From Candidatus Melainabacteria bacterium (lineage in GTDB: Bacteria; Cyanobacteriota; Vampirovibrionia; Vampirovibrionales; JAJTHC01), in contig JANRKP010000029.1 in assembly GCA_033763415.1 (NCBI GenBank), positions 148,413 through 212,412 of the forward strand: 64,000 nucleotides of DNA, in the 5' to 3' direction. This document shows, one piece after another, positions 4,981 through 46,117 of this stretch; the stretch's first letter is position 1; each line of letters opens with the position of its first letter. Position numbers and translations under genes: made by a program. The notes beneath the pieces are model-generated. The model worked only from the letters and a program-made list of their open reading frames with translations. It was not told the origin of the DNA and did no database searches.

Positions 4981-6213
4981 TTACATGTTTTCGTAAATGC
5001 TAAACAAGGGTAGGTAAATAGACAGAGCCAGCACGGCAACCATAAGGCCCAGGACCACCAGCATAATGGGTTCCAGCATGGCGGTAAGCACTTCAACCCG
5101 CTGGTTAATTTCTTCTTCCAGGTATTCGAATGCGTTTTCCATCATTTTTTCCAGCTCCCCGGACTCTTCGCCGGTGGAGATCATTAACAAGACGAGATCC
5201 GGCACCATTTTGGTACTGGCCATGGCAATGGCCAAACGTTGGCCTGCCTGAATTTGCACGTTCACCTGGCGGTAAGCCGCCTTTACCACAGAATTTTGAA
5301 TGGTTTCCGCCGATAGATAGAGCGCTTCCACAATGGGAATACCGGCTGAAAACGAGACATGGAACGTGGAAATAAACTGGGAGTTGGCAATAAATTTGGT
5401 CAGTTCATCCAGCACCGGAATTTTAAGGAATGCGCGGTCGAGCAAGGCTGTGCCCTGGGGCGATTTAACGTATTTTAACAACCCGTAAATGGAAAAACCC
5501 AGTGCCGGAAAAAACACAAACCAAAAACCCCGCATAAAGTTGCTAATGGCCACCATAATTTGGGTAATCAAGGGGAGTTCAATACCCATTTTTTCGTACA
5601 CATCCACAAAGGTGGGAATGACCAGCAGAAACATGACCAACATGACCAGGCCCATAATACACATAACGATGGCCGGATAGATGGAGGCGGAAATGACTTT
5701 GCCCTTTAGCTTTTCCGACTTGGTGAGCAGGTCCGTCATTCGGTTCATGGTGGCGTCTAATTCGCCACTGGCCTCCCCGGCGCGTGTCACGTTGACGTAA
5801 ACATCGCTAAAGACTTTGGGGTGTTTGGCCAAGGCGTTGCTCATGGAAACCCCGGCCAGGATGTCTCGGCGAATTTGCCCAATAATGGCTTTAAACTTGG
5901 GGTTGTCCATATAGGTTTCAAAGTACATTAGGGCTTCCGTTACCGGAATGCCGGTCTTGAACATCATGCTCATGTTGCGGGTAAAGGTAATCAGCTCCTT
6001 AGAACCCACCCCACTGAACAGTTGCATGACGATTTTAATGGGGTTTTTGCTTCTAACCTGGTTGGGATCGGTGGTTACGACCTTAAGCTGGGTGGGCACC
6101 AACTCCTGTTCGCGCAGCATTTCTCGGGCTTCGCGTTCCGTGTTGGCGTTAATCACGCCACTCACCCGGCTGCGATCCGACATTTTAAGGGCGTTGTACT
6201 GATAGGTTGGCAT
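4981..6213 (-). CDS. type II secretion / type IV pilus inner-membrane platform protein (GspF/PilC family)
   Basis: Two GspF-domain repeats with 3 TM segments. The N-terminus 'MPTYQYNALK' is typical of PilC/GspF. The track ORF is over-extended by 15 codons. The gene is convergent with hemC. Confidence 0.88.
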   Translation of the reverse strand: MPTYQYNALKMSDRSRVSGVINANTEREAREMLREQELVPTQLKVVTTDPNQVRSKNPIKIVMQLFSGVGSKELITFTRNMSMMFKTGIPVTEALMYFETYMDNPKFKAIIGQIRRDILAGVSMSNALAKHPKVFSDVYVNVTRAGEASGELDATMNRMTDLLTKSEKLKGKVISASIYPAIVMCIMGLVMLVMFLLVIPTFVDVYEKMGIELPLITQIMVAISNFMRGFWFVFFPALGFSIYGLLKYVKSPQGTALLDRAFLKIPVLDELTKFIANSQFISTFHVSFSAGIPIVEALYLSAETIQNSVVKAAYRQVNVQIQAGQRLAIAMASTKMVPDLVLLMISTGEESGELEKMMENAFEYLEEEINQRVEVLTAMLEPIMLVVLGLMVAVLALSIYLPLFSIYENM

Positions 6214-6275
6214 ACCGTTTTGGCTCCGTGCGGTCTTTTTTTTCCGCTTTGAAAACAACGATTAGGGGGCTGCTA

Positions 6276-8054
6276 CTATCCGCCCAGGCTGACACCCATG
6301 ACCCGAATCACTTCATCGAGCGTGCTTTCTCCCAGCAGTACCTTTTCTCGGCCCCGCATGGCCAGTGTCTTCATGCCCGAAGAAATGGCGGCGTCCTCAA
6401 TTTCTAAGTCCGAACTGCTGTTGGTAATAAGCTGCTGAATTTCTCGATCCACCATTAAGATCTCGTACAAACCAATCCGGCCTAAATACCCGGTGTTGTT
6501 GCACATATCGCAGCCTCGGCCTCGGTGTAATGCAAGCTCTTGCTGCTGGCGGTTTTCGTCGTACGGAAACAGAATTTTCTTCTCCGCGGCGGTGGCCTTG
6601 TAAGGGGCTTTGCAGTGGGGGCAAACGCTTCGGATGAGTCGTTGCGCCACAACGCCCTTTAGGGCAGAAGCAATCAGGCTGGTAGAAGCCCCCATTTCGA
6701 TCATTCGGGTAATGGTGGCTGCTGTGCTGTTGCTGTGAATGGTGCTAAACACCAGGTGGCCTGTTAACGCCGCGTGAATGGCGGCTTCCAGGGTTTCATA
6801 GTCTCTAATTTCACCCACCATAATGACGTCTGGATCTTGTCTCAGCAAGGCCCGAAGACTGGTGGCGAATGTAAAATCGGCTTTGGGGTTTACCTGCGAT
6901 TGGTTGAGGCCTTCAATCGTTAATTCCACCGGGTCTTCCACGGTGGAAATGTTGGTCAGATCGTTATTAATTTTGTGGAGAATGGTGTACAGCGTGGTGG
7001 TTTTACCGGAACCCGTGGGACCACACACCAGCATAATGCCATAGGGAGACTTGTAGAGCGTTTCCAGCTTTTGAATGTCGTCGGCGTTAAAGCCCAGTTC
7101 GGGAAAATCGGTAATGTTTTTAGAAGGCCGTAAAATCCGAATAACGATTTTTTCCCGGTTCCCGGCCACGGGTAACGTGTTGACCCGCAGGTTGTATTCG
7201 CTGTTTTTGTACTTAATGCTAATCCGTCCATCTTGCGGACGACGGTGATCGGCAATATCCATTTGCGCCATCACTTTAATACGGGTCACGAAGCTCGATT
7301 CCATGTTTTGAGGAATGTCGAGCAGGTGTTTTAAAATGCCATCCACCCGAAAGCGCACCACGTACTTGTTACGCCGGGGCTCCACGTGAATATCACTGGC
7401 ATTGGCCTCAATACCCTCTTGAATAATGGAGTTAACCAGCTTAACCAACGGGTTGGACTGATCCGAGGCTTCGGCCTCCTGCCGCTGCTTGAGGCGGCTT
7501 TCTTCTTCTGAGGATCCCATGCCGGACTCTTGGGCCGTCGTCATGGATTCCAGCAGGTTGCTGGCCGCGCTGTCGTTGAGGTGCTTTTGGCAGAATTCTA
7601 AAAAGTCAAACTCGGTCGTTACCACCGCCTGGGGGCGCATGCCAGTAATAAAGGTAATTTCGTCAAAGGTGGAACGATCGCTGGGATCCACCATCGCAAT
7701 GACCAGCCTGCCTCCCGCGTTACTGACGGGAATGACCTGCTTTTCGCGCATAAACTCTTCGGGCAGCAGATCGATGAGTCGGGGATCCAGCTTAATTTGG
7801 GCCAAGCCCACGTAATTCAGGTTGTAGAAGAGGCTTTTGGCCTTGGCAAAGTCGTCTCGGGTAAGTTTGGCCCGGCGTACCAGCACCACGCCCACGGGCT
7901 GATTAACCTTTTGTGCCTCTTCCAGGGCAATGCGCAAATCGTCTTCGGAAACCCACTTTTGCTCCAACAGCACATCGGCCAAGGAGCGACCCCCGGCGGC
8001 TTTAGATGGCATGTTAGAGAGATTGGCGGAACTCAAGGCAATGATGATCCCCAA
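6276..8054 (-). CDS. type II secretion / type IV pilus assembly ATPase (GspE/PilB family)
   Basis: N-terminal GspII/MshE_N-like domain, Walker A 'GPTGSGKTTTLY', Asp/His boxes, and a tetracysteine motif (CPHC...CDMC). The true start may be the internal Met at about 8012. Confidence 0.9.
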   Translation of the reverse strand: MGIIIALSSANLSNMPSKAAGGRSLADVLLEQKWVSEDDLRIALEEAQKVNQPVGVVLVRRAKLTRDDFAKAKSLFYNLNYVGLAQIKLDPRLIDLLPEEFMREKQVIPVSNAGGRLVIAMVDPSDRSTFDEITFITGMRPQAVVTTEFDFLEFCQKHLNDSAASNLLESMTTAQESGMGSSEEESRLKQRQEAEASDQSNPLVKLVNSIIQEGIEANASDIHVEPRRNKYVVRFRVDGILKHLLDIPQNMESSFVTRIKVMAQMDIADHRRPQDGRISIKYKNSEYNLRVNTLPVAGNREKIVIRILRPSKNITDFPELGFNADDIQKLETLYKSPYGIMLVCGPTGSGKTTTLYTILHKINNDLTNISTVEDPVELTIEGLNQSQVNPKADFTFATSLRALLRQDPDVIMVGEIRDYETLEAAIHAALTGHLVFSTIHSNSTAATITRMIEMGASTSLIASALKGVVAQRLIRSVCPHCKAPYKATAAEKKILFPYDENRQQQELALHRGRGCDMCNNTGYLGRIGLYEILMVDREIQQLITNSSSDLEIEDAAISSGMKTLAMRGREKVLLGESTLDEVIRVMGVSLGG

Positions 8055-8229
8055 CGACTTGTTTGACCCGCCAGTGGTGCGGGTTTAGATGAGAAAACAC
8101 AAAACATTTTCCGGCAGTACCCGGTAGGCCAATCGTCCGTCGTCACAAAGTGGCTGAGCCCAGTGATTACATGACGTATCGACCGTTGGGCCAAGGGGCT
8201 GAAGCTTTGGGTTGCAATGCGCATAGCCG

Positions 8230-10407
8230 TTATTTCAACACCTCTTTAAAGCCACCAAAAGGTTGGCTGGGTTGTTTGCGCTGAAGGGTGGCCGCGTTTT
8301 CTGCAGCAGAGGCTGCTTTACTTTCCTGCGGTGTTGAAGAATGAGGCTCTAGCGGAATGCGACTACGCGCCGAGGTGCTGGAAACAGTATGGGTGGCAAC
8401 GGCAGCGGCGGCAACACCGCCCGTTTGTCCAAAACGAGATGTTTTGGGGGCGCTGGGTTGTAAATAATTGGAAGCGGTTGGCTTGCCTGGAGCACCACTG
8501 GCACCAGCCCCAGAGTCGGGGAGGCTTTGTGGCACGGCGTGGGGTGGAACGTGTCCCTGGTTGGGGTTAATGTAATTGCCGGGCGCGCCCACGCTGGGGT
8601 TTTCAAAGTAGGTTACGGCGGGCTCTTTAATAATGTGCGGAGTGACCATCAGCACCAGTTCGGTACGGCCACGCTGATTGCCGTTAAGGCCGTTAGAGGC
8701 TTTGAACATGGCCCCTAAAATGGGTAAGTCCGAAAGGCCGGGGATTTTTCGCCAGTCCTGAATGTTGGTTTCCTGGAGCAGGCCGCCAATAATCAACGTT
8801 TGTCCGTCGTGGACGCGAACCCCACTAATCGTGACATTTCGCGTGGCAATCAGCGGGGTTTGTGTCACAGCGGGGGGTGTTCCGCCAGAAGCAATACCGG
8901 TCACCTGGCTGACATCGGGCCGAAGGTTTAGGGTCACGGAACCATCGTTGGTAATGGTGGGGGTAATGGTCAGGCTCACACCCACGTTTTGCTTTTCCAC
9001 CGTGGTGTTTAACGTGGTGGCCCCGGCGGCGTTGGTATCTTGGGTGGTGTTAAACGTGGCCACTTCTTCCGTAATGCTAATTTGAGACTGGGTGCCATCC
9101 AACGCCAGAATGGTGGGGTTGGCTAAAATTTTGGAGTTTCTTTCCGTAAGCGAATTTAAAATGGAAAACGTGTTGAGAATCGGTAAACCGGCGGGATCAA
9201 ACGCCCGGTTGTAGCTCAAAATATTGGTGGCCGTCGTGGAACTGGGAATGAGATCCAGGGTCCATTCTCCCAGGCGGATTTGGCCAATGTTGGGCTCAAA
9301 CCGTTTATTGGTGGTGGCACCCACTTCAACCAGGGCCACTTCAATGGAAACCTGGGGCCGTTTAACATCCACCTGTCGAATAATCTCGTTGGCCATGGCC
9401 AGTTGTTCGGCCGTACCCATTACGGTTACGGAAGACGAAATGGGGTCGGCAATAATGGTCATGCTACCGGCTATGAGGGTAATGGGTCCCTGGGCTTGTA
9501 CTCCTCCGGCGGCGCCACCCGCACCACCTGCCGCTCCAGCAGCCCCTCCGGCTCCTCCAGCAGCACCACCCGCACCACCAATGGAAGGGGTAAAGTGTGC
9601 CACCAGTGCGTTGGCAACATACATGGGCGTATTGTGATGAATGGCGTACGTTCTGCGGTTGCGCGGCAGATCCACTTCGTTGAGCGCTTTCATCACCAGA
9701 CGTATATCGGCCTCGGTTCCCATAATGAGTAGCGAATTACTTTCCGGGTCAAAGGAGGCCACTGCCTCCTTGCTACCGCCTGGGCGGGCCGCCTTAAACA
9801 GCGTTTGGTTAAATTGGTCCGCCACGGCGGCGGCACTGCGGTACAGTACCGGAATGGCCTTAAAGGTTTGGGTGTTGAGGTTTTTCTCTTCGGCCACCTT
9901 TTGCGCAGCCACAATGAGGGTATTTCCATCTTTGTAGTAGGTTAAATCCGAAACGGTAAAAATGTACTCCAGCGCCTTGTTAATGGAAACGTTTTGCACA
10001 TCGACGGTCAGTGTGCCCTCAACCGAAGAATCCAGCAGGATGTTGAACTTGCCCTGCTTGGCCAAAATGTTGAGGATGTCTCTGAGATCGGCATCTCTCA
10101 TACTCAACGATACCGTGCTGCCCCCTGCGGCAATTTCCAAGTTGCGGTTAACGCTAATTTGGCCCTTTACCTGAGGCTCCAGCGATTTGTAGTTGGGTGG
10201 GCCACCTGGCTGGCTGGCTGGCTTTTCCAAACGCGGCTGAAGGGATTCCTCAATGGGTAAGCCGTTCCCGCCCCCGGCGGCCCAAAGGCTCAGGCTTCCG
10301 GGGCTTAACAGGTAGACAGATGACAACGCCAGAGACAAGATCGTTTTTGAGCGCCATAAGGCACAGGGAACGTTCGGCAAGGGTAAAATGGTGTTTGGGT
10401 GGCGCAT
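8230..10407 (-). CDS. secretin (GspD/PilQ family) with internal Gly/Ala repeat linker and Pro/Ser-rich C-terminal tail
   Basis: Signal peptide after MRHPNT. N0/N1-like domains. Secretin core 'NPTILALDGTQSQISITEEV...LVLMVTPHIIK'. Track ORF over-extended, and the likely start is 10407. Confidence 0.85.
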   Translation of the reverse strand: MRHPNTILPLPNVPCALWRSKTILSLALSSVYLLSPGSLSLWAAGGGNGLPIEESLQPRLEKPASQPGGPPNYKSLEPQVKGQISVNRNLEIAAGGSTVSLSMRDADLRDILNILAKQGKFNILLDSSVEGTLTVDVQNVSINKALEYIFTVSDLTYYKDGNTLIVAAQKVAEEKNLNTQTFKAIPVLYRSAAAVADQFNQTLFKAARPGGSKEAVASFDPESNSLLIMGTEADIRLVMKALNEVDLPRNRRTYAIHHNTPMYVANALVAHFTPSIGGAGGAAGGAGGAAGAAGGAGGAAGGVQAQGPITLIAGSMTIIADPISSSVTVMGTAEQLAMANEIIRQVDVKRPQVSIEVALVEVGATTNKRFEPNIGQIRLGEWTLDLIPSSTTATNILSYNRAFDPAGLPILNTFSILNSLTERNSKILANPTILALDGTQSQISITEEVATFNTTQDTNAAGATTLNTTVEKQNVGVSLTITPTITNDGSVTLNLRPDVSQVTGIASGGTPPAVTQTPLIATRNVTISGVRVHDGQTLIIGGLLQETNIQDWRKIPGLSDLPILGAMFKASNGLNGNQRGRTELVLMVTPHIIKEPAVTYFENPSVGAPGNYINPNQGHVPPHAVPQSLPDSGAGASGAPGKPTASNYLQPSAPKTSRFGQTGGVAAAAVATHTVSSTSARSRIPLEPHSSTPQESKAASAAENAATLQRKQPSQPFGGFKEVLK
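9499..9579 (-). repeat. in-frame low-complexity coding repeat (Gly-Ala)n within secretin
   Basis: The nucleotide tract is ggn/gcn-rich and imperfectly tandem, encoding 'GGAGGAAGGAGGAAGAAGGAGGAAGG'. It is not a CRISPR array, because there are no spacers. Confidence 0.8.
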
Positions 10408-10459
10408 CGGGTGTTCTCTAATCAAAAACGGTGACTGACGGTAACAAATAGCTGAAGGT

Positions 10460-11335
10460 TTAAGGCTTTTGGAGTTCATCTAAAATGCTTTTAACGCTGC
10501 TGCTAACCGCTTTGCTGTCTACAGCGCCCGGCTTGGTGGGTAATTGGTCGGGGGGTGTTGCACCACCACCCGAAGACGCACCAGGACTTCGACTTCGGCT
10601 GTCTTCGGAGGCTCCCTCTGAGCGGCCGCTGCTGCTGTTGCGATAGCCCACCACATCGGGTAAATCCAGTTTTCGGCTTTCCCCTTTTTTCTTGCTGGTA
10701 TCGCTCAGTTCCACGGCGTTGGGCCGAATGCTTTTAATGCGCAGCGCAGTTCCTTCCACCTGAATGGTTTGTCCGGCTTCCACCATCAACGTGCCATCGT
10801 TTTCGGTTTGTAAAATGGCCATGGGTTTCTTGGCGTTGTAGGAAATTCCCAGCAACGTCACGCTTTCCAGTGGAGAGACTTCGACAATGGGCGGTGGCGT
10901 GGGCCCGGCATTGGGCGTTTCCACCGTGGGCAGCGGTTCGGGCTCAGGCCGGGTTAGTTTGCTGTAAAAAGGGTCTGTGGGTAACTGAAGCAACGCATCG
11001 GCCATGGCCATGGTAATGGGGGCTCGGTTCCCATCGCGTGCAATGGGCTTAATAACCGGTTCGTTTGCCTGTGCCGTGGGCGGCGCAATGTTATTGCCTG
11101 GCAACGCGCCAGGGGTGGTTGCAATATCGCAGGCAGCCATCATCAACATAACGCTGGTTCCCAGTAAAACCAGAGTTTCCTTACGAGATGGGTTGCTGTG
11201 GGCAACCGATAGCACACTGATAGCCTCCTGATGAAGCGGTAATGGGTCATTTGTGAGAAATGGCGTGTGCGCTTTGCGTCTCAATGCACGAAAGCGTCCG
11301 TGTGGCTCCATTGAGCGAAGATCATGGGCACACAC
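10460..11335 (-). CDS. PilP / GspC-HR-like secretin-interacting protein (lipoprotein-like signal, Pro-rich linker, beta-sandwich domain, Ser/Gly-rich tail)
   Basis: Lipobox-like 'LMMAAC'. The segment 'SVTLLGISYNAKKPMAILQTENDGTLMVEAGQTIQVEGTALRIKSIRPNAVEL' matches the PilP/GspC HR-domain pattern. It sits immediately upstream of the secretin. The start is uncertain, and the internal Met at 11311 is possible. Confidence 0.5.
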   Translation of the reverse strand: MCAHDLRSMEPHGRFRALRRKAHTPFLTNDPLPLHQEAISVLSVAHSNPSRKETLVLLGTSVMLMMAACDIATTPGALPGNNIAPPTAQANEPVIKPIARDGNRAPITMAMADALLQLPTDPFYSKLTRPEPEPLPTVETPNAGPTPPPIVEVSPLESVTLLGISYNAKKPMAILQTENDGTLMVEAGQTIQVEGTALRIKSIRPNAVELSDTSKKKGESRKLDLPDVVGYRNSSSGRSEGASEDSRSRSPGASSGGGATPPDQLPTKPGAVDSKAVSSSVKSILDELQKP

Positions 11336-11731
11336 ACAACCGACTCTTCTCTCTAACAGTTAGGACGCAAAGCGCTTTTTTCACCCGTACCGGTGCCTGA
11401 ATCCATCAGTTGCCGACAAGGGGGCAAAGCCTGCCAATGCAAGACGATGTAAACACAGTCGTCCTCGCTCCATCATAGAGAAATCCGTGGGGGGAGGAAT
11501 CCTTCAATTAAATGAGCTTATTCGTGCGTTTGGGCGTGTTTGCGCATGACGGCCTACGGCGGGAGGAGGGAACATTAAGTTTTTCTTAACCGGATGGTCT
11601 TTTGGCCGCATCTTGCTTACCATATTGGCCAGACAATGTTCTAACGCATGCTTGGCAAGATACCACGCTTTCGAACAACAGTGCGTTCTTGCTGAGCTCG
11701 GTTTTGTGTTCCAAGGAGGTTGACAACGTCC

Positions 11732-12040
11732 ATGCCTGCTACAGAAACCCAAGTAAAGCTAAAGCCTATCGGCGATCGCGTGATCCTGGAAGTGTTGGAT
11801 GACGCTGAAAAATCCGAAGGCGGCATTTATATTCCTGATTCTGCTCGTGAAAAACCCCAGCGGGGTCGTGTGTTGGCCGTTGGTAAACGTAAGCTGAACG
11901 ATGGCCGCGAAGAAGAGCTCTACGTCAAAGTGGGCGAAGTGGTTCTGTTTGCCAAATACGGCGGCACCGATGTGAAGTTGGGCGATCGTGAATACAAAAT
12001 TCTTTCCGAGAAAGACATTTTGGCCGTTATTGAAGGCTAA
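11732..12040 (+). CDS. groES: co-chaperonin GroES
   Basis: 'VKLKPIGDRVILEV...IYIPDSA' canonical GroES. The ATG at 11732 is preceded by AGGAGG, while the track ORF begins at a TTG at 11720. Confidence 0.93.
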   Translation: MPATETQVKLKPIGDRVILEVLDDAEKSEGGIYIPDSAREKPQRGRVLAVGKRKLNDGREEELYVKVGEVVLFAKYGGTDVKLGDREYKILSEKDILAVIEG

Positions 12041-13742: not shown

Positions 13743-13886
13743 AGCGCGTTTCTAGCGTTTGACGTATTCGCTTAACATTGTTCTCATTCTAAAACCCTTC
13801 GTCCTGTGGCTGGCTTGCTGGCACAAGGCGGAGGGTTTTTACCGTGGAAGGCTTTGACTGATCAGCAGCCGGTTGTGGTTGCTTTC

Positions 13887-14270
13887 TCAGGTTTTGTCGC
13901 TATTGGCGGTAGCGGGGGGGTGGCTTTCAGCGGGAACTCCTGCTGCGGGTGTCTCCTCTGCTGGCTGAAGGGCTTCTTCCGACAGGGCGGCTTGCGGGGG
14001 GCCCTCCAGCGCCACGCTACCCGAGGAGGCTTCAGCGGCATCTTTAAATCCGTGCTGAGTTTTTTTGGGGCCAGAAGAAAGCGGCTTCTTTCCCTTGGGG
14101 TTGGCCCAAATGCGACCCATCCACAGGCCCAATGTACCCATCAGCAGTGCGGAACCCAACGCCAGTGGGACCAATCCCCAGGGCGGATTGCCATACCACA
14201 GGCCTGTGTACAGTATGATGCAGAGTGTGGCGCTGGCCGCCAAGCCTGCCATTTTTTGGCCGCTATCCAT
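13887..14270 (-). CDS. hypothetical small membrane protein (2 predicted TM helices, acidic/Pro-rich tail)
   Basis: ORF only. It lies 39 nt downstream of flhA on the same strand. Confidence 0.35.
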   Translation of the reverse strand: MDSGQKMAGLAASATLCIILYTGLWYGNPPWGLVPLALGSALLMGTLGLWMGRIWANPKGKKPLSSGPKKTQHGFKDAAEASSGSVALEGPPQAALSEEALQPAEETPAAGVPAESHPPATANSDKT

Positions 14271-14309
14271 GGTGGACGTTGGGTGTTCCTCTCATTCACA
14301 AACGACACG

Positions 14310-16481
14310 CTAAACCGCTAAGGGATTGCTGTTGGATTCAATACGAACCGAGCCCAGGGCCTGTACGCGAACGGTGGGGCCAATTTCGTTGTACGAAAGC
14401 ACGGCTATTTGCGGCAAAATCCGCTCAATTAATCGCCGGAAAGGCAGCCGAATTTTGGCGTTGCACAGCAGTACCGGCTGGGTGCCACTGCTGCTAATAA
14501 CCCGCTCCACTTCGCGGTTGAGCGCCTGGAGTAAATCCTGGGTAAACGTGGGGCTGAGCGCCAAGGATGCAAGCCCCAGACCGTTTTCTCCTTGGGTGAG
14601 ACTGGTGCCCATCAGTCCCTGGGCAAGCATTTCTTCCACCTCGGGGGCGAGGGTCACGACGGGGAGATCGCCCGTATCCGGGTTGAGGTGTTGTTTGCAA
14701 ATGGCGCGAGACAGCGCCATGCGCACCTGCTCTGTGAGGAAGTCGGCATCTTTCGACACACGGCAATGGTAGCTCAGGGCCTCTAAAATGCTGGACATAT
14801 CTCGGATGGAGACTTTTTCTTTCAGCAAATTCTGTAAAATGACGTGAAGCTCGGCCACGCTTAAGGTATCGGGAATGAGATCGTTGACCAGAGAGTCTGC
14901 GCTTTTACGAACGTTCTCCAACAGCTCCTGAACGTCTTTGCGGCTGAGGATATCGGGTGCAAGGCGTTTAAAAATTTCCGTCAGGTGCGTGGAAACAACC
15001 GCAGAGGCGCTAACCACCGTGTAGCCAGCCATCTCGGCATCGAGTTTTTGAAAGCCTTCAATCCACAAGGCGGGCAGACCAAAGGCAGGCTCTCGGGTTT
15101 CAATGCCTTCTATGGGCTCCACCCCATCCGGGTCTGTGCTCATGGCCAGCCACATATCGGCCATTACCTCGCCGGTGGCAACCGTAATGCCTTTAAGCTT
15201 AACGTTGTACTGGTTGGCGGGCAGTTGTAAATTGTCTCGCACCCGAACGGAGGGCAGCACCATGCCCAGTTCCGTGGCTACCTGGCGGCGGATTTGGGCA
15301 ATGCGCTCCAGCAGATCGCCCCCGGCTTCGGCCTCAATCAGTGGGACCAGTCGGTAACCAATTTCTAGCTCCAGTGGTTCCACGGTCAGGAGATCCATCA
15401 CATTGTCGCTGGGCGTCTTTTTCTTGCGTTTGGCTTTTTCTTGGGCTTCCTGCTGCTGTTTCTGGGCAACATCCTCCTGCTTTTTGGTGTTGTATAGCAA
15501 ATAGGCCGCCCCGCCTGCCACACCGCCCACTAATAAAAACGGAATGGTGGGCAAGCCAGGAATTAAGCCCATACCAATCAGCAAGCCCCCTAACACGCCC
15601 AACACCTTTGGGTTTTGGAACATTTGCGAGCCAATGTCTTCACTGAGGTCGCGCCGGTCATCGGTATCCGAGACGCGGGTGACCAGTAAGCCCGTTGCAG
15701 CAGAGATAATGAGCGCAGGCATTTGAGAGACCAATCCATCGCCCACGGTGAGAATCGTGTAGGTGGAGGCGGCCTGATCGATGGGCATGCCGAGCTGAAC
15801 AACACCAATAATTAAGCCGCCCACAATGTTAATGACCGTAATAATGATGGCCGCAATCGCATCGCCCTTTACAAACTTGCTGGCACCATCCATCGTACCG
15901 TAGAAGTCCGCCTCTTTTTGAATCATCGTTCGGCGTCGTTTGGCTTCTTTCTCGTCGATGGTTCCGGCGTTTAGATCGGCATCAATGCTGAGCTGTTTCC
16001 CTGGCATGGCGTCCAACGTAAACCGGGCCGCCACCTCCGAGACCCGTCCCGCCCCATTGGTAATAACAATAAAGTTAATAATGATAAGAATTATGAAAAT
16101 AAGCAAACCCACCACATAGTTGCCGCCAATGACAAACGAACCGAATGCGTGGACCACGCTTCCGGCTTCGCCATAAAGTAGAATGAGCCGTGTGGTGCTG
16201 ACGTTTAGCCCCAACCGGAACAGGGTAGAGAGCAGCAAAATAATGGGAAACGTTGAATACTGAAGGGGTTCCGTAGTGTAGAGCGTGACCAGTAAAATGG
16301 TGAGCGACAGTGCAATGTTGACCGTCAGCAACATATCGAGCAGTTGCGAGGGGATGGGAATAATCATCATGCAGACGATGAGCACCATGCCCACGGCCAA
16401 CAACACATCGTTGTGCTGAAACAGCTTTTGCCACTTTACGGGCGCGGCTTTGGTGTTGGGCGGTGGCGTGGCGCCGGCCAA
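14310..16481 (-). CDS. flhA: flagellar/type III export apparatus protein FlhA (FHIPEP family)
   Basis: 723 aa. Eight N-terminal TM helices with the FHIPEP signature 'GAGRVSEVAARFTLDAMPGKQLSIDADL', plus a large cytoplasmic C-domain. Confidence 0.88.
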   Translation of the reverse strand: MAGATPPPNTKAAPVKWQKLFQHNDVLLAVGMVLIVCMMIIPIPSQLLDMLLTVNIALSLTILLVTLYTTEPLQYSTFPIILLLSTLFRLGLNVSTTRLILLYGEAGSVVHAFGSFVIGGNYVVGLLIFIILIIINFIVITNGAGRVSEVAARFTLDAMPGKQLSIDADLNAGTIDEKEAKRRRTMIQKEADFYGTMDGASKFVKGDAIAAIIITVINIVGGLIIGVVQLGMPIDQAASTYTILTVGDGLVSQMPALIISAATGLLVTRVSDTDDRRDLSEDIGSQMFQNPKVLGVLGGLLIGMGLIPGLPTIPFLLVGGVAGGAAYLLYNTKKQEDVAQKQQQEAQEKAKRKKKTPSDNVMDLLTVEPLELEIGYRLVPLIEAEAGGDLLERIAQIRRQVATELGMVLPSVRVRDNLQLPANQYNVKLKGITVATGEVMADMWLAMSTDPDGVEPIEGIETREPAFGLPALWIEGFQKLDAEMAGYTVVSASAVVSTHLTEIFKRLAPDILSRKDVQELLENVRKSADSLVNDLIPDTLSVAELHVILQNLLKEKVSIRDMSSILEALSYHCRVSKDADFLTEQVRMALSRAICKQHLNPDTGDLPVVTLAPEVEEMLAQGLMGTSLTQGENGLGLASLALSPTFTQDLLQALNREVERVISSSGTQPVLLCNAKIRLPFRRLIERILPQIAVLSYNEIGPTVRVQALGSVRIESNSNPLAV

Positions 16482-16645
16482 GGCAATAATTCCTCTGCTC
16501 TCTTAAAATGTTGGTTGGGTAAAATGTGGTTTGGGTTGCTGCATTGCGCCATAACGGCTGAAAGTTTTATTCCCACCTATTATTTTGAAGCAAACGCCCA
16601 AGGGGGCAGCAACCACCTTTTGGTCAATCTTTGGCCGGTGGGGGT

Positions 16646-17605
16646 TCATTGGCCAGGGGCGGGCGTGGTTGTTTCCGTTGGGTACTCAATACAACCGGTC
16701 TGTGTGGCGTACCCACCCACCTGAACTCCGAGAATCTCTTTTGGCGCCGAGGGGTTTAGTTGTAGACATACCTGAATGTAGGCGGGCGAGTAGAGCGTCC
16801 AGCCCTGTTCTAGTTGCAAGGTAACCGCTGCCACCGGGTCACCCGGGGCAGCGATTGGGGCAGAGATTGAGGCAGACATAGGAGCAGCCAAAAGCCCGTA
16901 ATGGTGCAAATAACAGGCCAGTGCACCACTGGCGGAACCTGTCGCGGGTTCTTCGTCAATGCTGTAGCGGGGGGCAAAGTTACGGCAATGGGCCGTACTG
17001 TATGCCGCAATGGGCTCCAGGCAAAACACGTGGTAACCGGTCACCTGGTGCTCAACGCTCAACTGTCGAATGGCTTCAAAATCAGGCTCAAGTGTCCACA
17101 GTGTTTCGCGATCCTTTACTCCAACCAGAATATCCGGCAAACCGGTGGAAACAATCTGTACCGGGGCATGGGCCAGCAACTGGCTTGCAGCCATACCCAA
17201 GGACTGGGCAATGGGCTCTGGAGGGAGGATGGGCCCGTAGGAAGGTTGCTGCTGATCCATCCAAATGTAGCCATCGGGTAAAATGCGCACGTTTAACACT
17301 CCGGCCAGGGTTTCCTGCGTGTAGGTGCCGGGCTTTAAAATGCCCTGTTGAAACAGCAGTGCAAACGTGGCCACGGTGGCGTGTCCGCAAAAATCAACCT
17401 CGCCTGCCGGGGTAAAAAAGCGCACCCGAACGTCGGCCCGCTTGGAGGGCAACACAAACGCTGTTTCCGAAAAGCCAACGGCTTGGGCAATGGCCGTATA
17501 TTCTGCCGCGAGTAGGTCCGGCGCGTTTAGGACCACCCCAGCCCCATTGCCGCCGTTGGCCACAGCGCTGAAGGCTTGGAGGGTGTGGATGCGGAGTGGA
17601 GGCAT
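16646..17605 (-). CDS. PhzF-family isomerase-like protein
   Basis: 'GNGAGVVL...FSETAFVLP...FFTPAGEVDFCGHATVA' matches the PhzF fold motifs. Confidence 0.75.
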   Translation of the reverse strand: MPPLRIHTLQAFSAVANGGNGAGVVLNAPDLLAAEYTAIAQAVGFSETAFVLPSKRADVRVRFFTPAGEVDFCGHATVATFALLFQQGILKPGTYTQETLAGVLNVRILPDGYIWMDQQQPSYGPILPPEPIAQSLGMAASQLLAHAPVQIVSTGLPDILVGVKDRETLWTLEPDFEAIRQLSVEHQVTGYHVFCLEPIAAYSTAHCRNFAPRYSIDEEPATGSASGALACYLHHYGLLAAPMSASISAPIAAPGDPVAAVTLQLEQGWTLYSPAYIQVCLQLNPSAPKEILGVQVGGYATQTGCIEYPTETTTPAPGQ

Positions 17606-17635
17606 CTCTGTTGCCCTGCTGGTGTGGTGCTAAAG

Positions 17636-18469
17636 CTACAAAACCTTGCGTTGGCGTAATTGCTGAACAATGGCGTCTGCTTGCAGGGCCAATTGCGTAC
17701 AGGGCTCGCCGAGGTCTTTCATATCCAAACGATTGTTCTCCGAGGCAAACACTGTGCCAGGAGCCTGCCGACCAATCTCATTTAAAATGGGGGTTGCTCC
17801 GTCGCGAAAGTGAATCGATTGAATTTTTCCGAGCCCGAATAGCTCGGGCACAAACGCCGAGCGACCATAGGTTACACTGAACGCGGTTTTTTCCTTTGGC
17901 AGCCTGAGTGTAAAGGTATTTTCCACGAGACCATCGGCATGACGGGTGGTTTTCTCTGCAATAACGGTATGGTTGTTGGCAATGAGTTGCTTAGCTAGGG
18001 CAGCCTTTAAATGAAATCCGACCTCATTGGCGCTGAAAGTAGTGGCAGGTTCCAGACGAATATGCGTGGCGGCTAATACGCCTTTAAACGTGTCTAGCAC
18101 TTCCTGGGCCCGGCTTTGTTTTAGCGTCTCGCGCTCTTCTGCACTCAGTAGTTGAGGCGCATTGGTTTCTGCACGTTCCAGCAAACGGTTGCTAAACGCA
18201 ACCACATCTTCGCCTGCAAGCGCGGAGAAATGCTGCGTTCCATTGTGGCGTGTATCAATTTTGCCATTGAGGTAAGTGGGAGCCACCGTAACACTAATTT
18301 TTTGAGGGTCTTTGGCATCGGCAATTTGATTGGCCCGAGCTCTTAGTGTGTCTTCTTGCACGTTAATCTGGGCTTGTTCATCAATCAATTGCCGAGGAGA
18401 TTGAAACTCCCAGTCAATGGTTGCGCCAAACCGCTGAAAAGAAGTACCCATCATGGTGTTGAGCTCCAT
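17636..18469 (-). CDS. hypothetical protein (277 aa), embedded between flhB and the PhzF-family gene
   Basis: ORF with no recognisable motifs. Co-oriented, with 30-120 nt gaps to its neighbours. Confidence 0.45.
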   Translation of the reverse strand: MELNTMMGTSFQRFGATIDWEFQSPRQLIDEQAQINVQEDTLRARANQIADAKDPQKISVTVAPTYLNGKIDTRHNGTQHFSALAGEDVVAFSNRLLERAETNAPQLLSAEERETLKQSRAQEVLDTFKGVLAATHIRLEPATTFSANEVGFHLKAALAKQLIANNHTVIAEKTTRHADGLVENTFTLRLPKEKTAFSVTYGRSAFVPELFGLGKIQSIHFRDGATPILNEIGRQAPGTVFASENNRLDMKDLGEPCTQLALQADAIVQQLRQRKVL

Positions 18470-18592
18470 ATGCTAAAAAGCGTTTTTTCGCTTCTGAGTA
18501 ATCACAACGCACGTCAGTGCCAGCATAGACTGCTCCGGTGGTTTACGCAAAGGTTAACGCACTAATGATTACATTTGTAAATCGGCTTCACC

Positions 18593-19705
18593 CTAGTTGT
18601 CTTCTGGCAAGCTTGGTCGAGGGGCGGGCGAGTTGGGGCGGGTGCGCCGACTTTTATTTCTGGCGAACACGTAGGCCAGCACTTCGGCCACGGCAGCAAA
18701 CAAGTCGGGGGGAATCATCTGATCCACGTCCACGGCGGCATAGAGGGAGCGCGCCAACGGCTTGTTCTCCATCAGCGGCACGCCGTGTTCTTTGGCAAGC
18801 ATCCGAATCTGCATGGCCACGTGGTCCTTGCCTTTGGCCACCACCGTGGGCGCGGGGAAGAGGTCGGGGTCGTACTTAATGGCCACCGAAAAGTGGGTGG
18901 GGTTGGTAATCACCACATCCGCGGTGGGAACGGACACCATTTGCCGTTTCCGGGCCATTTGCGCAGCCGTTTGCCGAATGCGGCTCTTGATCATTGGATC
19001 GCCCTCGGTTTCCTTGCGCTCGTCTTTAATGTCCTGTTTGCTCATCATCAGTTGCTTTTCCAGCTCATAAGCCTGGTAGCGCCAATCAATCAGCCCAATG
19101 ACGAAGAAAATCGCGATGGACCACAGGGCAATCTGGCTTAAAATCTCCCCAATTAGGCTCAAGGCGGTTGGTAAATCCAGCAAGTTCAGCCCCATTAGCT
19201 CGGTTTGCCGCCCCATAATAACCATACTGGCAATGCTGCCCAATACAGCCATTTTAATAATGGCTTTGGCGCTCTCTACCATCGATCGCATGGAGACAAT
19301 GCGTTTGAAACCATTAATGGGGTTCAATTTATCCAGTTTGGGCTCCAGCGGCTTGGTAGTGAACAGGGGTTTAATCTGTACCAGGTTGATGAGAATGGCC
19401 GCCGTCGTGACGGTAAGCATCATGGGAACCAACAGCCAAATGAGTGTTTGCAACGCATCGGTCCACAGATCGCCAAACGTACTGACGGTGAGCGCTTGGG
19501 TGCTGAGCCGTTGATAGGTTCCTTGGAGAATGCCCGACAGACTGGCGTAAAAGTAGTTGCCGGAAAAAGAAACCAGCAACGCCAACGCGGCCAGAGAAAT
19601 GGCGGCGTTCAAGTCCTGACTTTTGGCAACCTGCCCTTGTTCGCGGGCCCGTTGCAGCTTGCGTGCGGTTGGTTTTTCAGTTCTGGATCCTGAGTCCTGG
19701 CTCAC
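18593..19705 (-). CDS. flhB: flagellar/type III export apparatus switch protein FlhB (SctU family)
   Basis: N-terminal 'SRTEKPTARKLQRAREQGQVAKSQDL', 4 TM helices, and the autocleavage site 'NPTH' in 'VVITNPTHFSVAIKY'. Confidence 0.9.
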   Translation of the reverse strand: MSQDSGSRTEKPTARKLQRAREQGQVAKSQDLNAAISLAALALLVSFSGNYFYASLSGILQGTYQRLSTQALTVSTFGDLWTDALQTLIWLLVPMMLTVTTAAILINLVQIKPLFTTKPLEPKLDKLNPINGFKRIVSMRSMVESAKAIIKMAVLGSIASMVIMGRQTELMGLNLLDLPTALSLIGEILSQIALWSIAIFFVIGLIDWRYQAYELEKQLMMSKQDIKDERKETEGDPMIKSRIRQTAAQMARKRQMVSVPTADVVITNPTHFSVAIKYDPDLFPAPTVVAKGKDHVAMQIRMLAKEHGVPLMENKPLARSLYAAVDVDQMIPPDLFAAVAEVLAYVFARNKSRRTRPNSPAPRPSLPEDN

Positions 19706-19753
19706 GAAAAAGCCCTCTTTCTCCTGCGAATGGTCAAAGGGTGTTCTCTGGTC

Positions 19754-20572
19754 TTAACCGGCCTGAAACAACCCCATCAGGGTCTTAATCAGTGCCTGGT
19801 CTTGCCGGGCCATGGCTTCCACCACCGTAGGCAGTGTTACGGCCATCATGCCCAAACCAATGGCAACCTTAAGCGGCATACTCACCATAAACACGTTCAT
19901 TTGGGGCATCACTTTGGCCATAAACGCCAACGCCACCTCAACTACCAACAGAACCCCGAGTACGGGTAAGCCCACCATCAGCGCGGTTACAAACAGATCG
20001 GCGGTGAGTTGAATAAAGCGTTCAGCCAAAAGCCCCCAAGATTTTTCCGTAAGGACTTGGCCCAGGGGAATGTGGCCAAAGCTGTGTGCAACGGCAACCA
20101 GCAGCCAGTGGTGCAAATTCAGCATCATAAACACAATCAGGCCCAGATACAGGTACCATTGCCCCACCACCGGGTTTTGTCCGCCAGTGGCCGGGTCTAC
20201 CTGGCTGGCAACCGAAAGCCCCATTTGCAGGCCAAGCAGGGTTCCCATATAGCGAATGCCGTGAAAGGCCAGTGTGGCGCTAAAGCCCAGCAGCAGCCCA
20301 ATCATTAATTCTTGCCCAATGAGGACTGCCAAAGCCCATTCGTGGGTGGGCAGTTGCTGGGTGGCGGGCTGGCCAAACAAGCCGTATCCATTTGCCACCA
20401 GGGGGCACAGTAGGAGGCTGACCACGGCGGTCAGGCCGATCATCAGATTGGGTGGCACCACAATCACCTGCATCAGCGGAGAGGCCCCAATCATGCCGCC
20501 AATTCGGGAAAAAACCAGCATAAACGCCAGCACGTGCGGTACGCTCAAGTAACTACCCAGGGAGGTATCCAT
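19754..20572 (-). CDS. fliR: flagellar/type III export gate protein FliR (SctT family)
   Basis: 272 aa polytopic membrane protein with a FliR-like N-terminus 'LAFMLVFSRIGGMIGASPL'. It lies 48 nt upstream of flhB. Confidence 0.8.
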   Translation of the reverse strand: MDTSLGSYLSVPHVLAFMLVFSRIGGMIGASPLMQVIVVPPNLMIGLTAVVSLLLCPLVANGYGLFGQPATQQLPTHEWALAVLIGQELMIGLLLGFSATLAFHGIRYMGTLLGLQMGLSVASQVDPATGGQNPVVGQWYLYLGLIVFMMLNLHHWLLVAVAHSFGHIPLGQVLTEKSWGLLAERFIQLTADLFVTALMVGLPVLGVLLVVEVALAFMAKVMPQMNVFMVSMPLKVAIGLGMMAVTLPTVVEAMARQDQALIKTLMGLFQAG

Positions 20573-20800
20573 TCCGTTGAACGCTCTCTCTCTCTCGTCT
20601 CTTCTTGCCGGTTTGCTGGGTGCGCCGGTGTTGGTAGGCGGGCTGCTGCCACCGTGGATGAAGCACCGGCGCTGGCACAGAGTGGGTGGCTATCCTAAGA
20701 ATAGAGGAGGTGCTGCCGGTCGCCATCCTTTAAGCAAAGGAAATGACTCCCTGGGGGCTTCTGCTTACAAAGGATTGACATGAAAATTAAAAAATGATAC

Positions 20801-21523
20801 TTGTTAAAGTATAATCTTCGCAAGTTTATCTTGCCCCTAAGGGAGGACCATTTTGGTGCTCCCTTTTGTAGTAGATACCCCTTAAGGACGTATGTTTTGG
20901 TTCGTGTGGCCGCTTTTGTCGATGGTTTCAATTGCTATCATCGCTTGGAAGATCATCTGAGAGAAACAGGAAAAAACCTAAAGTGGCTTAATTATGCGCA
21001 ACTCTTGCAGCGTGTTTGCACGGAAAATGCGCAATTAGTTCAATTAATCCGACAATCGGAGGCGAGCGTATACTATCGCGTTCATTTTTTCACGGCAATT
21101 CCAGAGTGGCGTGGACCTGAGGCGGTCGATCGTCATGCAAGGTACCTTTCTGCTTTAGACAGTATGGGGGTACAAGTTCACAAAGGTCGGTTTTCAAGCG
21201 ATCGCAAGGAAAAAGAGTCGGATGTGCACTTGGCCATACAATTGTATCGAAGCGCTGCACTGAATTTAGCGGATGTGATCGTTTTGTTTTCTGCCGATAC
21301 GGACTTTGTACCAGCCCTTCGACAGGTAAGAGAAGATTTTCCCAAAAAACATTTGGTACTAGTAACATTCAAAATGAAGCAAGTTCAAGGCTACGCCAGT
21401 TTGCAATCTCAAGCACATCAGCATATTCGCATTCGGTTGGATTTAATGGCCCAGTGCCAGCTGCCACAAACTATTGTTTACGAGGGTAAGACTATTGAAA
21501 GCCCCTACCGGTTGGGAGGTTAA
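20801..21523 (+). CDS. NYN-domain (LabA/PIN-like) protein in a low-GC islet
   Basis: 'RVAAFVDGFNCYH' and 'VIVLFSADTDFVPAL' are NYN hallmarks. The probable true start is the TTG at 20897 (MVRVAAFVDG...), 8 nt after 'aagga'. Local GC is about 45% against about 59% in the flanks. Confidence 0.6.
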   Translation: MLKYNLRKFILPLREDHFGAPFCSRYPLRTYVLVRVAAFVDGFNCYHRLEDHLRETGKNLKWLNYAQLLQRVCTENAQLVQLIRQSEASVYYRVHFFTAIPEWRGPEAVDRHARYLSALDSMGVQVHKGRFSSDRKEKESDVHLAIQLYRSAALNLADVIVLFSADTDFVPALRQVREDFPKKHLVLVTFKMKQVQGYASLQSQAHQHIRIRLDLMAQCQLPQTIVYEGKTIESPYRLGG

Positions 21524-34062: not shown

Positions 34063-34635
34063 TTGACAATGAACCGCCTCGGCCCACCAGCACCCTCCAG
34101 CCAACATCCGTCCGCATCTGCCCAGCTACGTTTTAGCGCGCTCGATCCCAGTACGGTGCACACGGGAGACTGGCTCAGTCGTCCCAACCACCTGTACCGA
34201 GCCAACGAAGTCGAAGATCCCGCCTATCACGTGAGTGATACCGTCTATTTCCAGGTCACGGTGCCGCCCAAACACGACCCCGTTGAAGACAACCCCAACT
34301 ACCAACACCGCTGGATTGCCAAAGGCCGCTACTTTAACACCAACGGCGAACCCATTCACCATCAGCCGGAAGATTACCAGGCGTTTTTTGTCGATCCGGC
34401 CACCGGAATGGACCCCGAAGTCTCGCGAATTCCAGAACCCGCCTTTGCCAAGCGTGCCCAAACCCTAACGCCCGAACCCACGGAAGGCATTGCCCCCTTT
34501 TTACAGCATTTTAAAACCGCAATAGGGTTGCTGCTCAGCCTTGGCCTTGCAATGGGTCTTCTGTTCGGGCTACTGCTACGCAGTACGGGCAACACCACCG
34601 CCACGACAGCCACCCCAGAAAACCCGGCAGCTTAA
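34063..34635 (+). CDS. hypothetical protein with C-terminal TM anchor
   Basis: ORF, followed by a strong terminator. Confidence 0.35.
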   Translation: MTMNRLGPPAPSSQHPSASAQLRFSALDPSTVHTGDWLSRPNHLYRANEVEDPAYHVSDTVYFQVTVPPKHDPVEDNPNYQHRWIAKGRYFNTNGEPIHHQPEDYQAFFVDPATGMDPEVSRIPEPAFAKRAQTLTPEPTEGIAPFLQHFKTAIGLLLSLGLAMGLLFGLLLRSTGNTTATTATPENPAA

Positions 34636-45277: not shown

Positions 45278-46117
45278 TTATTGGCTTAATTTGTTGCGCA
45301 AGCGCAAAATGGCCTGGGCATGGAGCTGGCACACCCGCGATTCGGAGACGCTAATTACTTCGCCAATCTCTTTCAGCGTCATATTTTCGTGGTAGTACAG
45401 CGCAATTAGCAGTTTTTCGCGCTCCGGCAAGGAGGCAATGGCCTCTGCCAGGCGACGACGCAGATCGCCAGCCTCAAACTCGCCTTGGGGATCCGGGCTG
45501 TTCTTGTCCATTACCGTATCCATCAGCGACAGCGAGCCACCACCGGAATCGTCCGAGCCCCAACTGTCATCCAAGGAAAGTACCAGGTTACTGCTTTCGG
45601 CCAGCATGGTTTGCACTTTGGCCTTGGTAATGCCCAACTCTTTGGCCAAGTCATCATCGGTGGGGGCACGGCCCAGTTTTTCTTCCAACCGTGCATAGGC
45701 TTCATTCAGGTCGCGGCTGCGCTTGCGCACCCCTCGCGGAATCCAATCCTGCAAACGTAACTGATCAATAATGGCGCCACGAATCCGGGTCACGGCATAG
45801 GTTTCAAACTTCAGGCCGCGATCCGGGTCAAAGCGTTCCACCGCCTCCATCAGCCCAATCGTGCCATAGCTAATCAGATCCTCAGGGCCAATACTCACCG
45901 GTAGCGTAACCGGCAAACGACTGACCACGTAGCGCACCAAGTGCAGATAGTGCAAAATGAGCTGCTCTCGAATTTGCGCATTGCCCTGGCTGGATTTGTA
46001 CTTCTTCCAGAGGGCTAAAATCTCTTCTGCCTTGCCATTGGACGCACTTCGGGCTGGTTTCTCAACCTTACCACCGGGCGTTGATAGCTTGGGAATGGAG
46101 CGCTTGACTTCAGACAT
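45278..46117 (-). CDS. fliA: RNA polymerase sigma-28 factor (FliA/WhiG/SigD family)
   Basis: Region 2 'YAVTRIRGAIIDQLRLQDWIPRGVRKR' and region 4 'LPEREKLLIALYYHENMTLKEIGEVISVSESRVCQLHAQAILRLRNKL' align closely with FliA from enteric bacteria. Confidence 0.85.
   Translation of the reverse strand: MSEVKRSIPKLSTPGGKVEKPARSASNGKAEEILALWKKYKSSQGNAQIREQLILHYLHLVRYVVSRLPVTLPVSIGPEDLISYGTIGLMEAVERFDPDRGLKFETYAVTRIRGAIIDQLRLQDWIPRGVRKRSRDLNEAYARLEEKLGRAPTDDDLAKELGITKAKVQTMLAESSNLVLSLDDSWGSDDSGGGSLSLMDTVMDKNSPDPQGEFEAGDLRRRLAEAIASLPEREKLLIALYYHENMTLKEIGEVISVSESRVCQLHAQAILRLRNKLSQ

Follow-up and report, generated by a model that had tools for sequence, protein, structure and literature searches.

The export-gate genes fliR, flhB and flhA present in the analyzed 64-kb stretch of DNA (hereafter the window), which is part of a 285-kb contig of the metagenome-assembled genome (MAG) of a 'Candidatus Melainabacteria bacterium', most likely reflect an ordinary, lineage-specific local rearrangement accompanied by passenger genes, rather than a new secretion machine. 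According to the account that we favor, and that we consider probable as a whole, the host would be a flagellated, Vampirovibrionales-like (Melainabacteria) bacterium, whose ancestor possessed a free-standing fliP-fliQ-fliR-flhB-flhA operon followed by a small membrane-protein ORF, and this operon would have been broken twice in this genome. One break, a rearrangement or insertion at the junction of fliQ and fliR, would have parted fliPQ from fliR at a junction where a defence-type NYN gene of low GC content now lies on the other strand. The other would have resulted from insertion between flhB and flhA of an orphan gene of foreign composition, here called X, and a gene for a PhzF-family isomerase. 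The remaining FliR, FlhB and FlhA would be functional and would form a normal flagellar gate together with FliP5-FliQ4, the genes for which would lie elsewhere in the genome, and X and PhzF would be passengers, possibly co-transcribed with the gate genes, and not gate components.

The block is encoded on the minus strand. It is headed by fliR (19754..20572; 272 aa), encoding a flagellar T3SS export-gate subunit (Pfam Bac_export_1, E 4.4e-58; annotated as FliR by NCBI, P0122), which is followed by flhB (18593..19705; 370 aa) for the export-gate switch protein (Bac_export_2, E 6.4e-126). The next two genes, both probable passengers, are X (17636..18469; 277 aa), whose function is unassigned, and the PhzF-family isomerase-like gene (16646..17605; 319 aa; PhzC-PhzF, E 7e-52). 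The last one, flhA (14310..16481), encodes the export-gate ring protein (723 aa from a TTG start; FHIPEP, E 4e-266), and has a GAGGA-type ribosome-binding site 9 nt before the TTG codon. These five ORFs, their coordinates and strand had been proposed from the sequence alone; their identities are borne out by Pfam, as is the lack of a domain in the 277-aa protein. The intergenic gaps are short, as had been noted, and measure 48 nt (fliR-flhB), 123 nt (flhB-X), 30 nt (X-phzF) and 164 nt (phzF-flhA), the last one slightly exceeding the proposed range of 30-120 nt. Directly downstream of flhA, the minus-strand orfY (13887..14270) encodes a predicted two-TM protein of 127 aa without a Pfam family. 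It is more likely to be the gene at this position than the overlapping plus-strand ORF 13806-14321, which is probably not a gene, because orfY is homologous to the ORF located after flhA in the relative L001 (tblastn, E 1.6e-8); a comparable ORF is found in the same position in L039. Outside the cluster, the window contains fliA/whiG (45278..46117, minus strand), encoding the flagellar sigma-28 factor (NCBIfam TIGR02479 FliA_WhiG, 269 bits, cut-off 189.6; Pfam sigma-70 regions r2, r3 and r4), whose presence shows that flagellar regulation is retained.

The breakpoint upstream of fliR corresponds to a gap of 228 nt (20573..20800), which is the site of fliQ in relatives, and no FliQ-like coding potential was found there in any frame. 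The 78-aa ORF at 20695-20931 on the minus strand was rejected as fliQ, since an HMM search showed that it is not FliQ-like. Across the 64 kb, tblastn searches with FliP and FliQ of a relative gave only chance matches (E of at least 0.27), and FliP and FliQ HMMs built from three Vampirovibrionales sequences, run with the --max option against the six-frame translation of the window, reached a best E value of 1.6 and detected no remnant. The claim of the sequence-only reading that fliR is not preceded by fliP and fliQ therefore stands, and neither gene is found elsewhere in the window. Its claim that flagellar structural genes are missing beyond the block, with fliA being present, agrees with the Pfam analysis of gene-like ORFs of at least 150 aa, in which FliA/WhiG was the only further flagellar protein in the 64 kb. 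The low-GC islet upstream of fliR is real at the gene level: the NYN-domain gene at the breakpoint (20801..21523, plus strand; Pfam NYN, E 2.6e-13) has a GC content of 0.447 and a GC3 of 0.427, versus a GC3 of about 0.60-0.69 in its neighbors, and its match to PADLOC HEC-09 (E 1.1e-26), which covers positions 3-195 of the 203 in the profile, makes it a candidate defence gene.

To interpret this organization we compared the gate genes of eight Vampirovibrionales relatives (L001, L038, L039, L040, L041, L042, L084 and V. chlorellavorus). The adjacency of fliR and flhB is kept in all eight sets, L042 showing flhB-flhA up to the contig end. Directly upstream of fliR, fliP-fliQ are present at five loci and in V. 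chlorellavorus, and flhB lies directly beside flhA at six loci and in V. chlorellavorus. The order is dnaJ-fliP-fliQ-fliR-flhB-flhA-orfY in L001 and L039, where nothing is inserted and neighboring genes are 0-165 nt apart, fliP-fliQ-fliR-flhB-flhA in L040 and L084, and fliR-flhB-flhA up to the contig end in L041. At least 11 pairs of FliP and FliR matches on equal-sized contigs, among the matches listed, are consistent with linkage being the rule. In V. chlorellavorus, which swims by means of a polar flagellum (PMC4451040), the five genes are consecutive (IMG 2600255743-47), and its remaining flagellar genes are distributed among 15 or more loci (PMC4451040 Table S3). Hence, the five-gene block normally stands alone in this order, away from other flagellar genes, and the lack of fliF, fliG and flg genes in the 64 kb is what is to be expected. 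L038 contains fliPQR-flhB without flhA, indicating that breakpoints do occur in the gate operon.

The proteins themselves are normally conserved. FliR, FlhB and FlhA of the window share 43-51%, 49-56% and 72-73% identity, respectively, with those of the relatives, which are 50-53%, 49-56% and 74% identical among themselves. The window proteins keep 85% (FliR), 89% (FlhB) and 91% (FlhA) of the positions at which the other orthologues do not vary, and in the independent lineages L001 and L038 these values are 82-92%; the three proteins are as conserved as their orthologues. FliR is full length against Bac_export_1, the FlhA match spans positions 1-656 of the 657 of the FHIPEP profile, and the NPTH autocleavage motif of FlhB is intact (VITNPTHFSVAIKY is present). 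The closest matches to all three are Vampirovibrionales FliR, FlhB and FlhA, and, judged by these flagellar orthologues, the flagellated lineage and the presence of FliA/WhiG, the gate is flagellar and not that of an injectisome. The normal conservation together with the intact NPTH motif suggests that the export gate is probably functional and, hence, that fliPQ are probably encoded elsewhere in the genome. The proposal that the block is a reduced or repurposed apparatus is undercut by this conservation, and also by the isolation of the block being typical of the order.

The alternative that survives best, although we consider it unlikely, is that the genome lost the fliPQ genes of this set and that FliR, FlhB and FlhA pair with the FliP and FliQ of a second, paralogous flagellar-type set. 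FliR is closely packed into the FliP5Q4 helix, and we know of no documented case in which FliR, FlhB and FlhA of one system work with FliP and FliQ of a paralogous one. A partner switch should shift conserved interface positions of FliR, and none is visible at a coarse level; the normal constraint on the three proteins, on the other hand, is also in keeping with such a hybrid gate. It may further be supported by the observation that none of the best 120 database matches to Vampirovibrionales (set-A) FliP is recognizably from this MAG, even though it should be noted that a FliP of about 72% identity would rank near the lower edge of these matches. V. chlorellavorus carries two paralogous sets of export-gate genes, one being the contiguous five-gene block and the other consisting of spoA/fliN-fliO-fliP-fliQ-fliR, a lone flhB, and fliH-flhA (PMC4451040), which makes a second source of FliPQ plausible in the order. 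Taken together, it appears doubtful that fliPQ are truly lost and that the gate is chimeric with FliP and FliQ of a second set or, less likely still, that X was recruited to it. A second alternative, that motility was lost and that fliR, flhB and flhA persist as non-functional relics of an operon from which fliPQ were deleted, could explain the local absence of fliPQ and the interruption of the operon by foreign-looking genes. However, the three ORFs are of full length and their family scores are very strong, NPTH and fliA are intact, and in divergence as well as in the invariant residues kept the proteins match lineages whose operon is intact (although a very recent loss could look alike), and we consider such decay very improbable.

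The two genes located between flhB and flhA had been regarded as candidate novel accessory components. X (MDX2085853.1, SFZ03_10755; called by NCBI as 272 aa, with its start at 18454) was the sole match to itself in a search among 5.8 billion proteins, and seven weak homologues (E 1e-7 to 7.5e-4) were retrieved when 1.84 billion representatives were scanned in full with HMMER. It thus belongs to a tiny orphan family with eight representatives in 1.84 billion. X has no match in Pfam, NCBIfam or PADLOC, and all eight family members lack a Pfam or NCBIfam match. X is a real protein, and in an AF2 model based on the alignment of the eight sequences (pLDDT 73) its fold is confidently predicted in most regions. 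The best hit of a profile search against the PDB was a histone-fold protein at E 0.45, and Foldseek found nothing in the PDB at E<0.001, the best hit being a weak HPF/YfiA-like sub-domain. The suggestion that the 277-aa protein might be an analogue of FliH, FliJ, FlhF or FlhG finds no backing in these searches, and FliO and FlhE were rejected along with these four, there being no similarity in sequence, profile or fold. The PhzF gene does belong to the PhzF family (PF02567, 177.1 bits against a threshold of 27; TIGR00654, 182.7 against 76.2), but remains below the cut-off of the equivalog NF007625 (185.9 versus 386 bits). Its product has 3edn and E. coli YddE (1qy9) as nearest solved structures, and matches the PhzF/YddE isomerases (3edn, 1qy9, 1u1v) over residues 5-248 (E 1.5e-35 to 3edn), whereas its C-terminal ~70 residues are divergent, with a low-complexity insert. 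No phenazine genes are located near it. Its GC3 of 0.61 is host-like, and the gene is therefore not obviously foreign; the GC3 of X is 0.49, versus 0.60-0.69 in its neighbors.

Based on their position, X and PhzF could be accessory or regulatory parts of the flagellar export apparatus that are specific to this lineage, or substrates exported by the apparatus. Both are on the strand of flhB and flhA with little intergenic space, predictions show no strong terminator or promoter between the genes, and X is a real protein without a known function. Since they are on the same strand, the X-phzF gap is 30 nt, and convincing terminators are lacking, X and phzF may be co-transcribed with the gate genes. 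Nevertheless, the comparative data largely contradict a role in export. Neither gene is present at the gate locus of L001, L039, L040, L041, L042, L084 or V. chlorellavorus, and no relative examined has them between flhB and flhA. Four of the X homologues (P0209-P0211, P0214) have non-flagellar neighborhoods, on contigs devoid of flagellar genes, and X itself is unlike the known flagellar families and atypical in codon composition. PhzF-family enzymes are soluble isomerases and, to our knowledge, have no flagellar role. A function of either protein in the apparatus hence seems most unlikely to us, and both genes are better regarded as probable passengers without a flagellar role. Finally, a chimeric contig, mis-joined upstream of fliR and/or around X-phzF, might be considered for a metagenome-assembled sequence in which both junctions coincide with compositionally atypical genes, but it is very improbable in view of the length of the contig (285 kb), the uniform GC on both sides, the lack of flanking repeats at the junctions able to cause mis-joins, and the fact that two mis-joins would have had to arise independently within 4 kb and to leave every ORF intact.

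With respect to known systems, the flagellar CORE (FliO/P/Q/R, FlhB, FlhA) is reused for nanotubes, whose formation is severely reduced by deletion of fliO, fliP, fliQ or flhA (Bhattacharya et al. 2019; PMC6456723). This is a documented non-flagellar role of the export gate, of the kind of repurposing that had been proposed for the window; however, the nanotube CORE still needs FliP and FliQ, and no feature of the window points to a nanotube role. The closest likeness is with the free-standing Vampirovibrionales cluster (V. chlorellavorus, L001, L039, L040, L084), with which the window shares the order and strand of fliR-flhB...flhA, the small membrane ORF after flhA and the isolation from other flagellar genes. 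It differs from this cluster in having an opposite-strand NYN/HEC-09 gene instead of fliP-fliQ upstream of fliR, X and PhzF between flhB and flhA, and different flanks (groEL and a two-component system, versus dnaJ/lpt in the relatives). The rare orphan family defined by X and the small membrane ORF, which is weakly conserved in the order, are of modest value. If the gate were chimeric or X had been recruited, this would constitute natural subunit exchange or innovation in a FliP5Q4R1 core that is otherwise rigid, and the two published gate sets of V. chlorellavorus make the FliPQ partner of FliR a directly testable question. In Campylobacterota (Helicobacter, Campylobacter), flagellar genes number more than 50 and are found at about 30 loci (PMC9321776), and the export-gate genes are unlinked yet functional, so that a normal flagellum does not require fliR to be linked to fliPQ. 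That scattering occurred independently in another phylum, and the window has only one extra break compared with its close relatives. If the simple reading is true, the compact fliPQR-flhBA operon of the Vampirovibrionales can split and acquire passengers, for which the flagellar genes of Campylobacterota offer a precedent.

The export-gate genes of the window lie on the minus strand in the order fliR (19754-20572; Pfam Bac_export_1, E 4e-58), flhB (18593-19705; Bac_export_2, E 6e-126), a gene for a 277-aa protein without Pfam family, here named X (17636-18469), a PhzF-family gene (16646-17605; Pfam, E 7e-52) and flhA (14310-16481; FHIPEP, E 4e-266). An ORF check together with Pfam confirmed these five minus-strand ORFs at the coordinates that a previous sequence-only reading had assigned to them. 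The gaps between them are 48 nt (fliR-flhB), 123 nt (flhB-X), 30 nt (X-phzF) and 164 nt (phzF-flhA), and 228 nt lie 5' of fliR. That reading had also claimed that fliP and fliQ are missing. This holds for the entire 64 kb, where there is no remnant of them either: tblastn with the proteins of a relative gave chance-level matches only, and the best E-value obtained with FliP/FliQ HMMs from three Vampirovibrionales, run with filters off against the six-frame translation, was 1.6. Among the gene-like ORFs of at least 150 aa in the window, Pfam detected no further flagellar structural genes, and the sole other flagellar gene encodes a FliA/WhiG sigma factor (45278-46117), again as had been proposed. 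Thus, as a description, the finding is real. It should be noted that a promoter/terminator scan gave counts at or under the shuffled expectation and carries no information on operon structure; the Rfam search returned a tRNA-Leu alone, and riboswitches were absent from the intergenic gaps.

The nearest FlhB, FliR and FlhA sequences belong to Vampirovibrionales/Vampirovibrio MAGs, and the window FliR is deposited at NCBI under the same organism name as X (MDX2085853.1), which lies on a 285-kb contig and is itself the single match to X when 5.8 billion clustered proteins are searched. The order has a cultured member, Vampirovibrio chlorellavorus, which swims by means of a single polar flagellum (PMC4451040). 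In one Vampirovibrionales MAG (locus L001) the gene order is lptA-lptB-lptFG-dnaJ-fliP-fliQ-fliR-flhB-flhA, after which come a 131-aa ORF and unrelated genes; this arrangement recurs in locus L039. Two JGI metagenome contigs (L040 and L084) also carry fliP-fliQ-fliR-flhB-flhA, and two other loci run to the contig end with fliR-flhB-flhA (L041) and flhB-flhA (L042). The fliP-fliQ gap of L040 (5033-5674) is ~640 nt, compared with ~160 nt in L084, a close relative of it. In addition, at least 11 FliP/FliR match pairs are located on equal-sized contigs, which is consistent with linkage being the rule. No gene is present between flhB and flhA in any relative examined, and X and PhzF genes are not nearby either. 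[quoted passage not shown] Taken together, the gate blocks of the relatives indicate that a five-gene gate operon standing alone is the ancestral state in the order and, hence, a neighborhood without other flagellar genes, such as that of the window, is normal. The genes upstream of the operon in relatives (dnaJ, lptA/B/FG) were absent from the window when sought by synteny. Breaks of the gate operon do occur in this group, since locus L038, which has the FliR most similar to that of the window (49-51% identity), contains fliP-fliQ-fliR-flhB (8974-11914) with no flhA after flhB. The break in L038 is independent of that in the window and lies at another junction of the operon.

The identities between the window proteins and those of the relatives (FliR 43-51%, FlhB 49-56%, FlhA 72-73%) are essentially equal to those among the relatives themselves (50-53%, 49-56% and 74%, respectively). 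In a leave-one-out comparison, where a position does not vary among all the other orthologues, it is conserved in the window FliR, FlhB and FlhA in 85%, 89% and 91% of cases, respectively; for the independent lineages L001 and L038 the figure is 82-92%. The NPTH autocleavage motif is present in the window FlhB. These three lines of sequence evidence argue that the window gate genes are not decaying and that they are under the same constraint as those in genomes with an intact operon.

At the position where relatives have fliQ, the window contains 228 nt of non-coding DNA followed by an opposite-strand NYN-domain gene (20801-21523, plus strand), for which PADLOC gave a match to its candidate defence family HEC-09 (E 1.1e-26). 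The low GC content noticed previously for this gene was borne out by its GC3 of 0.43, the lowest among 24 genes sampled (neighbors, 0.60-0.69). Such a gene at the fliQ site is in keeping with foreign DNA having inserted at the fliQ|fliR junction, or with a rearrangement there. Judging from its very low GC3 and its HEC-09 match, the gene probably represents a single-gene candidate defence islet gained by horizontal transfer. Around the inserted genes, a search for repeats and att-like sites gave short, chance-level matches only.

X is a real but orphan gene: when 1.84 billion representatives were scanned in full with HMMER, no more than seven homologues turned up, all of them weak (E 1e-7 to 7.5e-4). 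Their common N-terminal domain contains the motifs RFGA, I-D-KDP, NG--F and AE--AP-L-S-EE (alignment A1). The AlphaFold model built from the homologue alignment is usable (pLDDT 73, pTM 0.63) and predicts an alpha/beta domain at the N terminus, then a helical hairpin and, at the C terminus, a beta-sheet. No significant match to a known fold or family was obtained for X: the X-family profile gave empty results against PDB sequences and Pfam, and the best that Foldseek retrieved from the PDB was a weak similarity of the N-terminal ~95 residues to HPF/YfiA-type beta-alpha-beta folds (E ~0.09). At 0.49, the GC3 of X is well under the values of its neighbors (0.60-0.69), suggesting recent acquisition or rapid turnover. 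We rejected the N-terminal RF[GS]A motif as an export signal because in the AF2 model it lies within beta-strand 1 of the folded domain; the motif is probably structural. RF[GS]A-like starts are also found in a few other hypothetical proteins (L036, 3860-4996; window, 34063-34635). In L034, an X homologue (233-1012) is followed by a second ORF (1048-1290) with the same N-terminal PRFGA, and the two look like tandem paralogues.

The PhzF-family protein scores above the thresholds of its family, is most similar to the uncharacterized isomerases 3edn and YddE, and is encoded by a gene of host-like composition; no counterpart exists in the gate loci of the relatives. PADLOC gave no match for either X or PhzF. 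On the four readable contigs with X homologues, the neighbors are hypothetical and metabolic genes, and no flagellar genes were found within up to 10 kb on each side. The view that X and PhzF are novel gate components is therefore unsupported, and neither gene behaves as a conserved flagellar component.

Several other features of the window were observed. A small protein of 127-154 aa is encoded downstream of flhA in the window (13887-14270, minus strand), L001 (13233-13628) and L039 (13463-13927) (tblastn E 1.6e-8). Two TM helices are predicted in this protein, its tail is disordered and it lacks a Pfam family. Its gene occupies the same position as that of the enterobacterial FlhE, but the proteins are unrelated. 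A plus-strand ORF overlapping it (13806-14321) is probably spurious. A type IV pilus/T2SS-like block (4981-10479, minus strand) comprises pilC (T2SSF), pilB (T2SSE, MshEN domain) and an STN-domain secretin, and is adjoined by a gene for a 291-aa protein without family (10460-11335). The minus strand also carries adjacent WYL- and WCX-domain regulator-like genes (53806-55849) and a MoxR AAA+/DUF58/VWA triad (37867-41148), where long ORFs overlap because alternative start codons lie upstream. Finally, a 334-aa protein (50913-51917, plus strand) has a sub-threshold match to the Pfam AvrB_AvrC type III effector family (E 4e-4; 20.1 bits versus a cut-off of 23.2).

The arrangement is best explained by a lineage-specific rearrangement that would have broken the known gate operon, with X and PhzF as passenger genes. 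The FliP5Q4R1-FlhB1-FlhA9 complex requires FliP and FliQ (stoichiometry summarized in PMC6456723) and, given the constraint on the gate genes, the simplest inference is that both would be encoded elsewhere in the same genome. With the FliP of a relative as query, none of the best 120 of 8000 matches could be recognized as coming from this MAG, either by an MDX208... accession or by name, and a FliP of ~72% identity would sit at the edge of these 120. A mixed gate is conceivable if the MAG also has a second gene set and truly lacks the fliP and fliQ of the contiguous set. The published gene table of V. chlorellavorus gives two copies each of fliP, fliQ, fliR, flhB, flhA, fliF, fliE, flgB/C, motA/B and fliH, which implies two paralogous flagellar-type gene sets in a bacterium described with one polar flagellum; the second copies of the gate genes are arranged as spoA/fliN-fliO-fliP-fliQ-fliR, a lone flhB and fliH-flhA (PMC4451040 Table S3). 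We consider such a mixed gate improbable. Flagellar genes are scattered anyway in the Vampirovibrionales, and functional gates from unlinked genes are well known: in the Campylobacterota, more than 50 flagellar genes are distributed over ~30 loci (PMC9321776).
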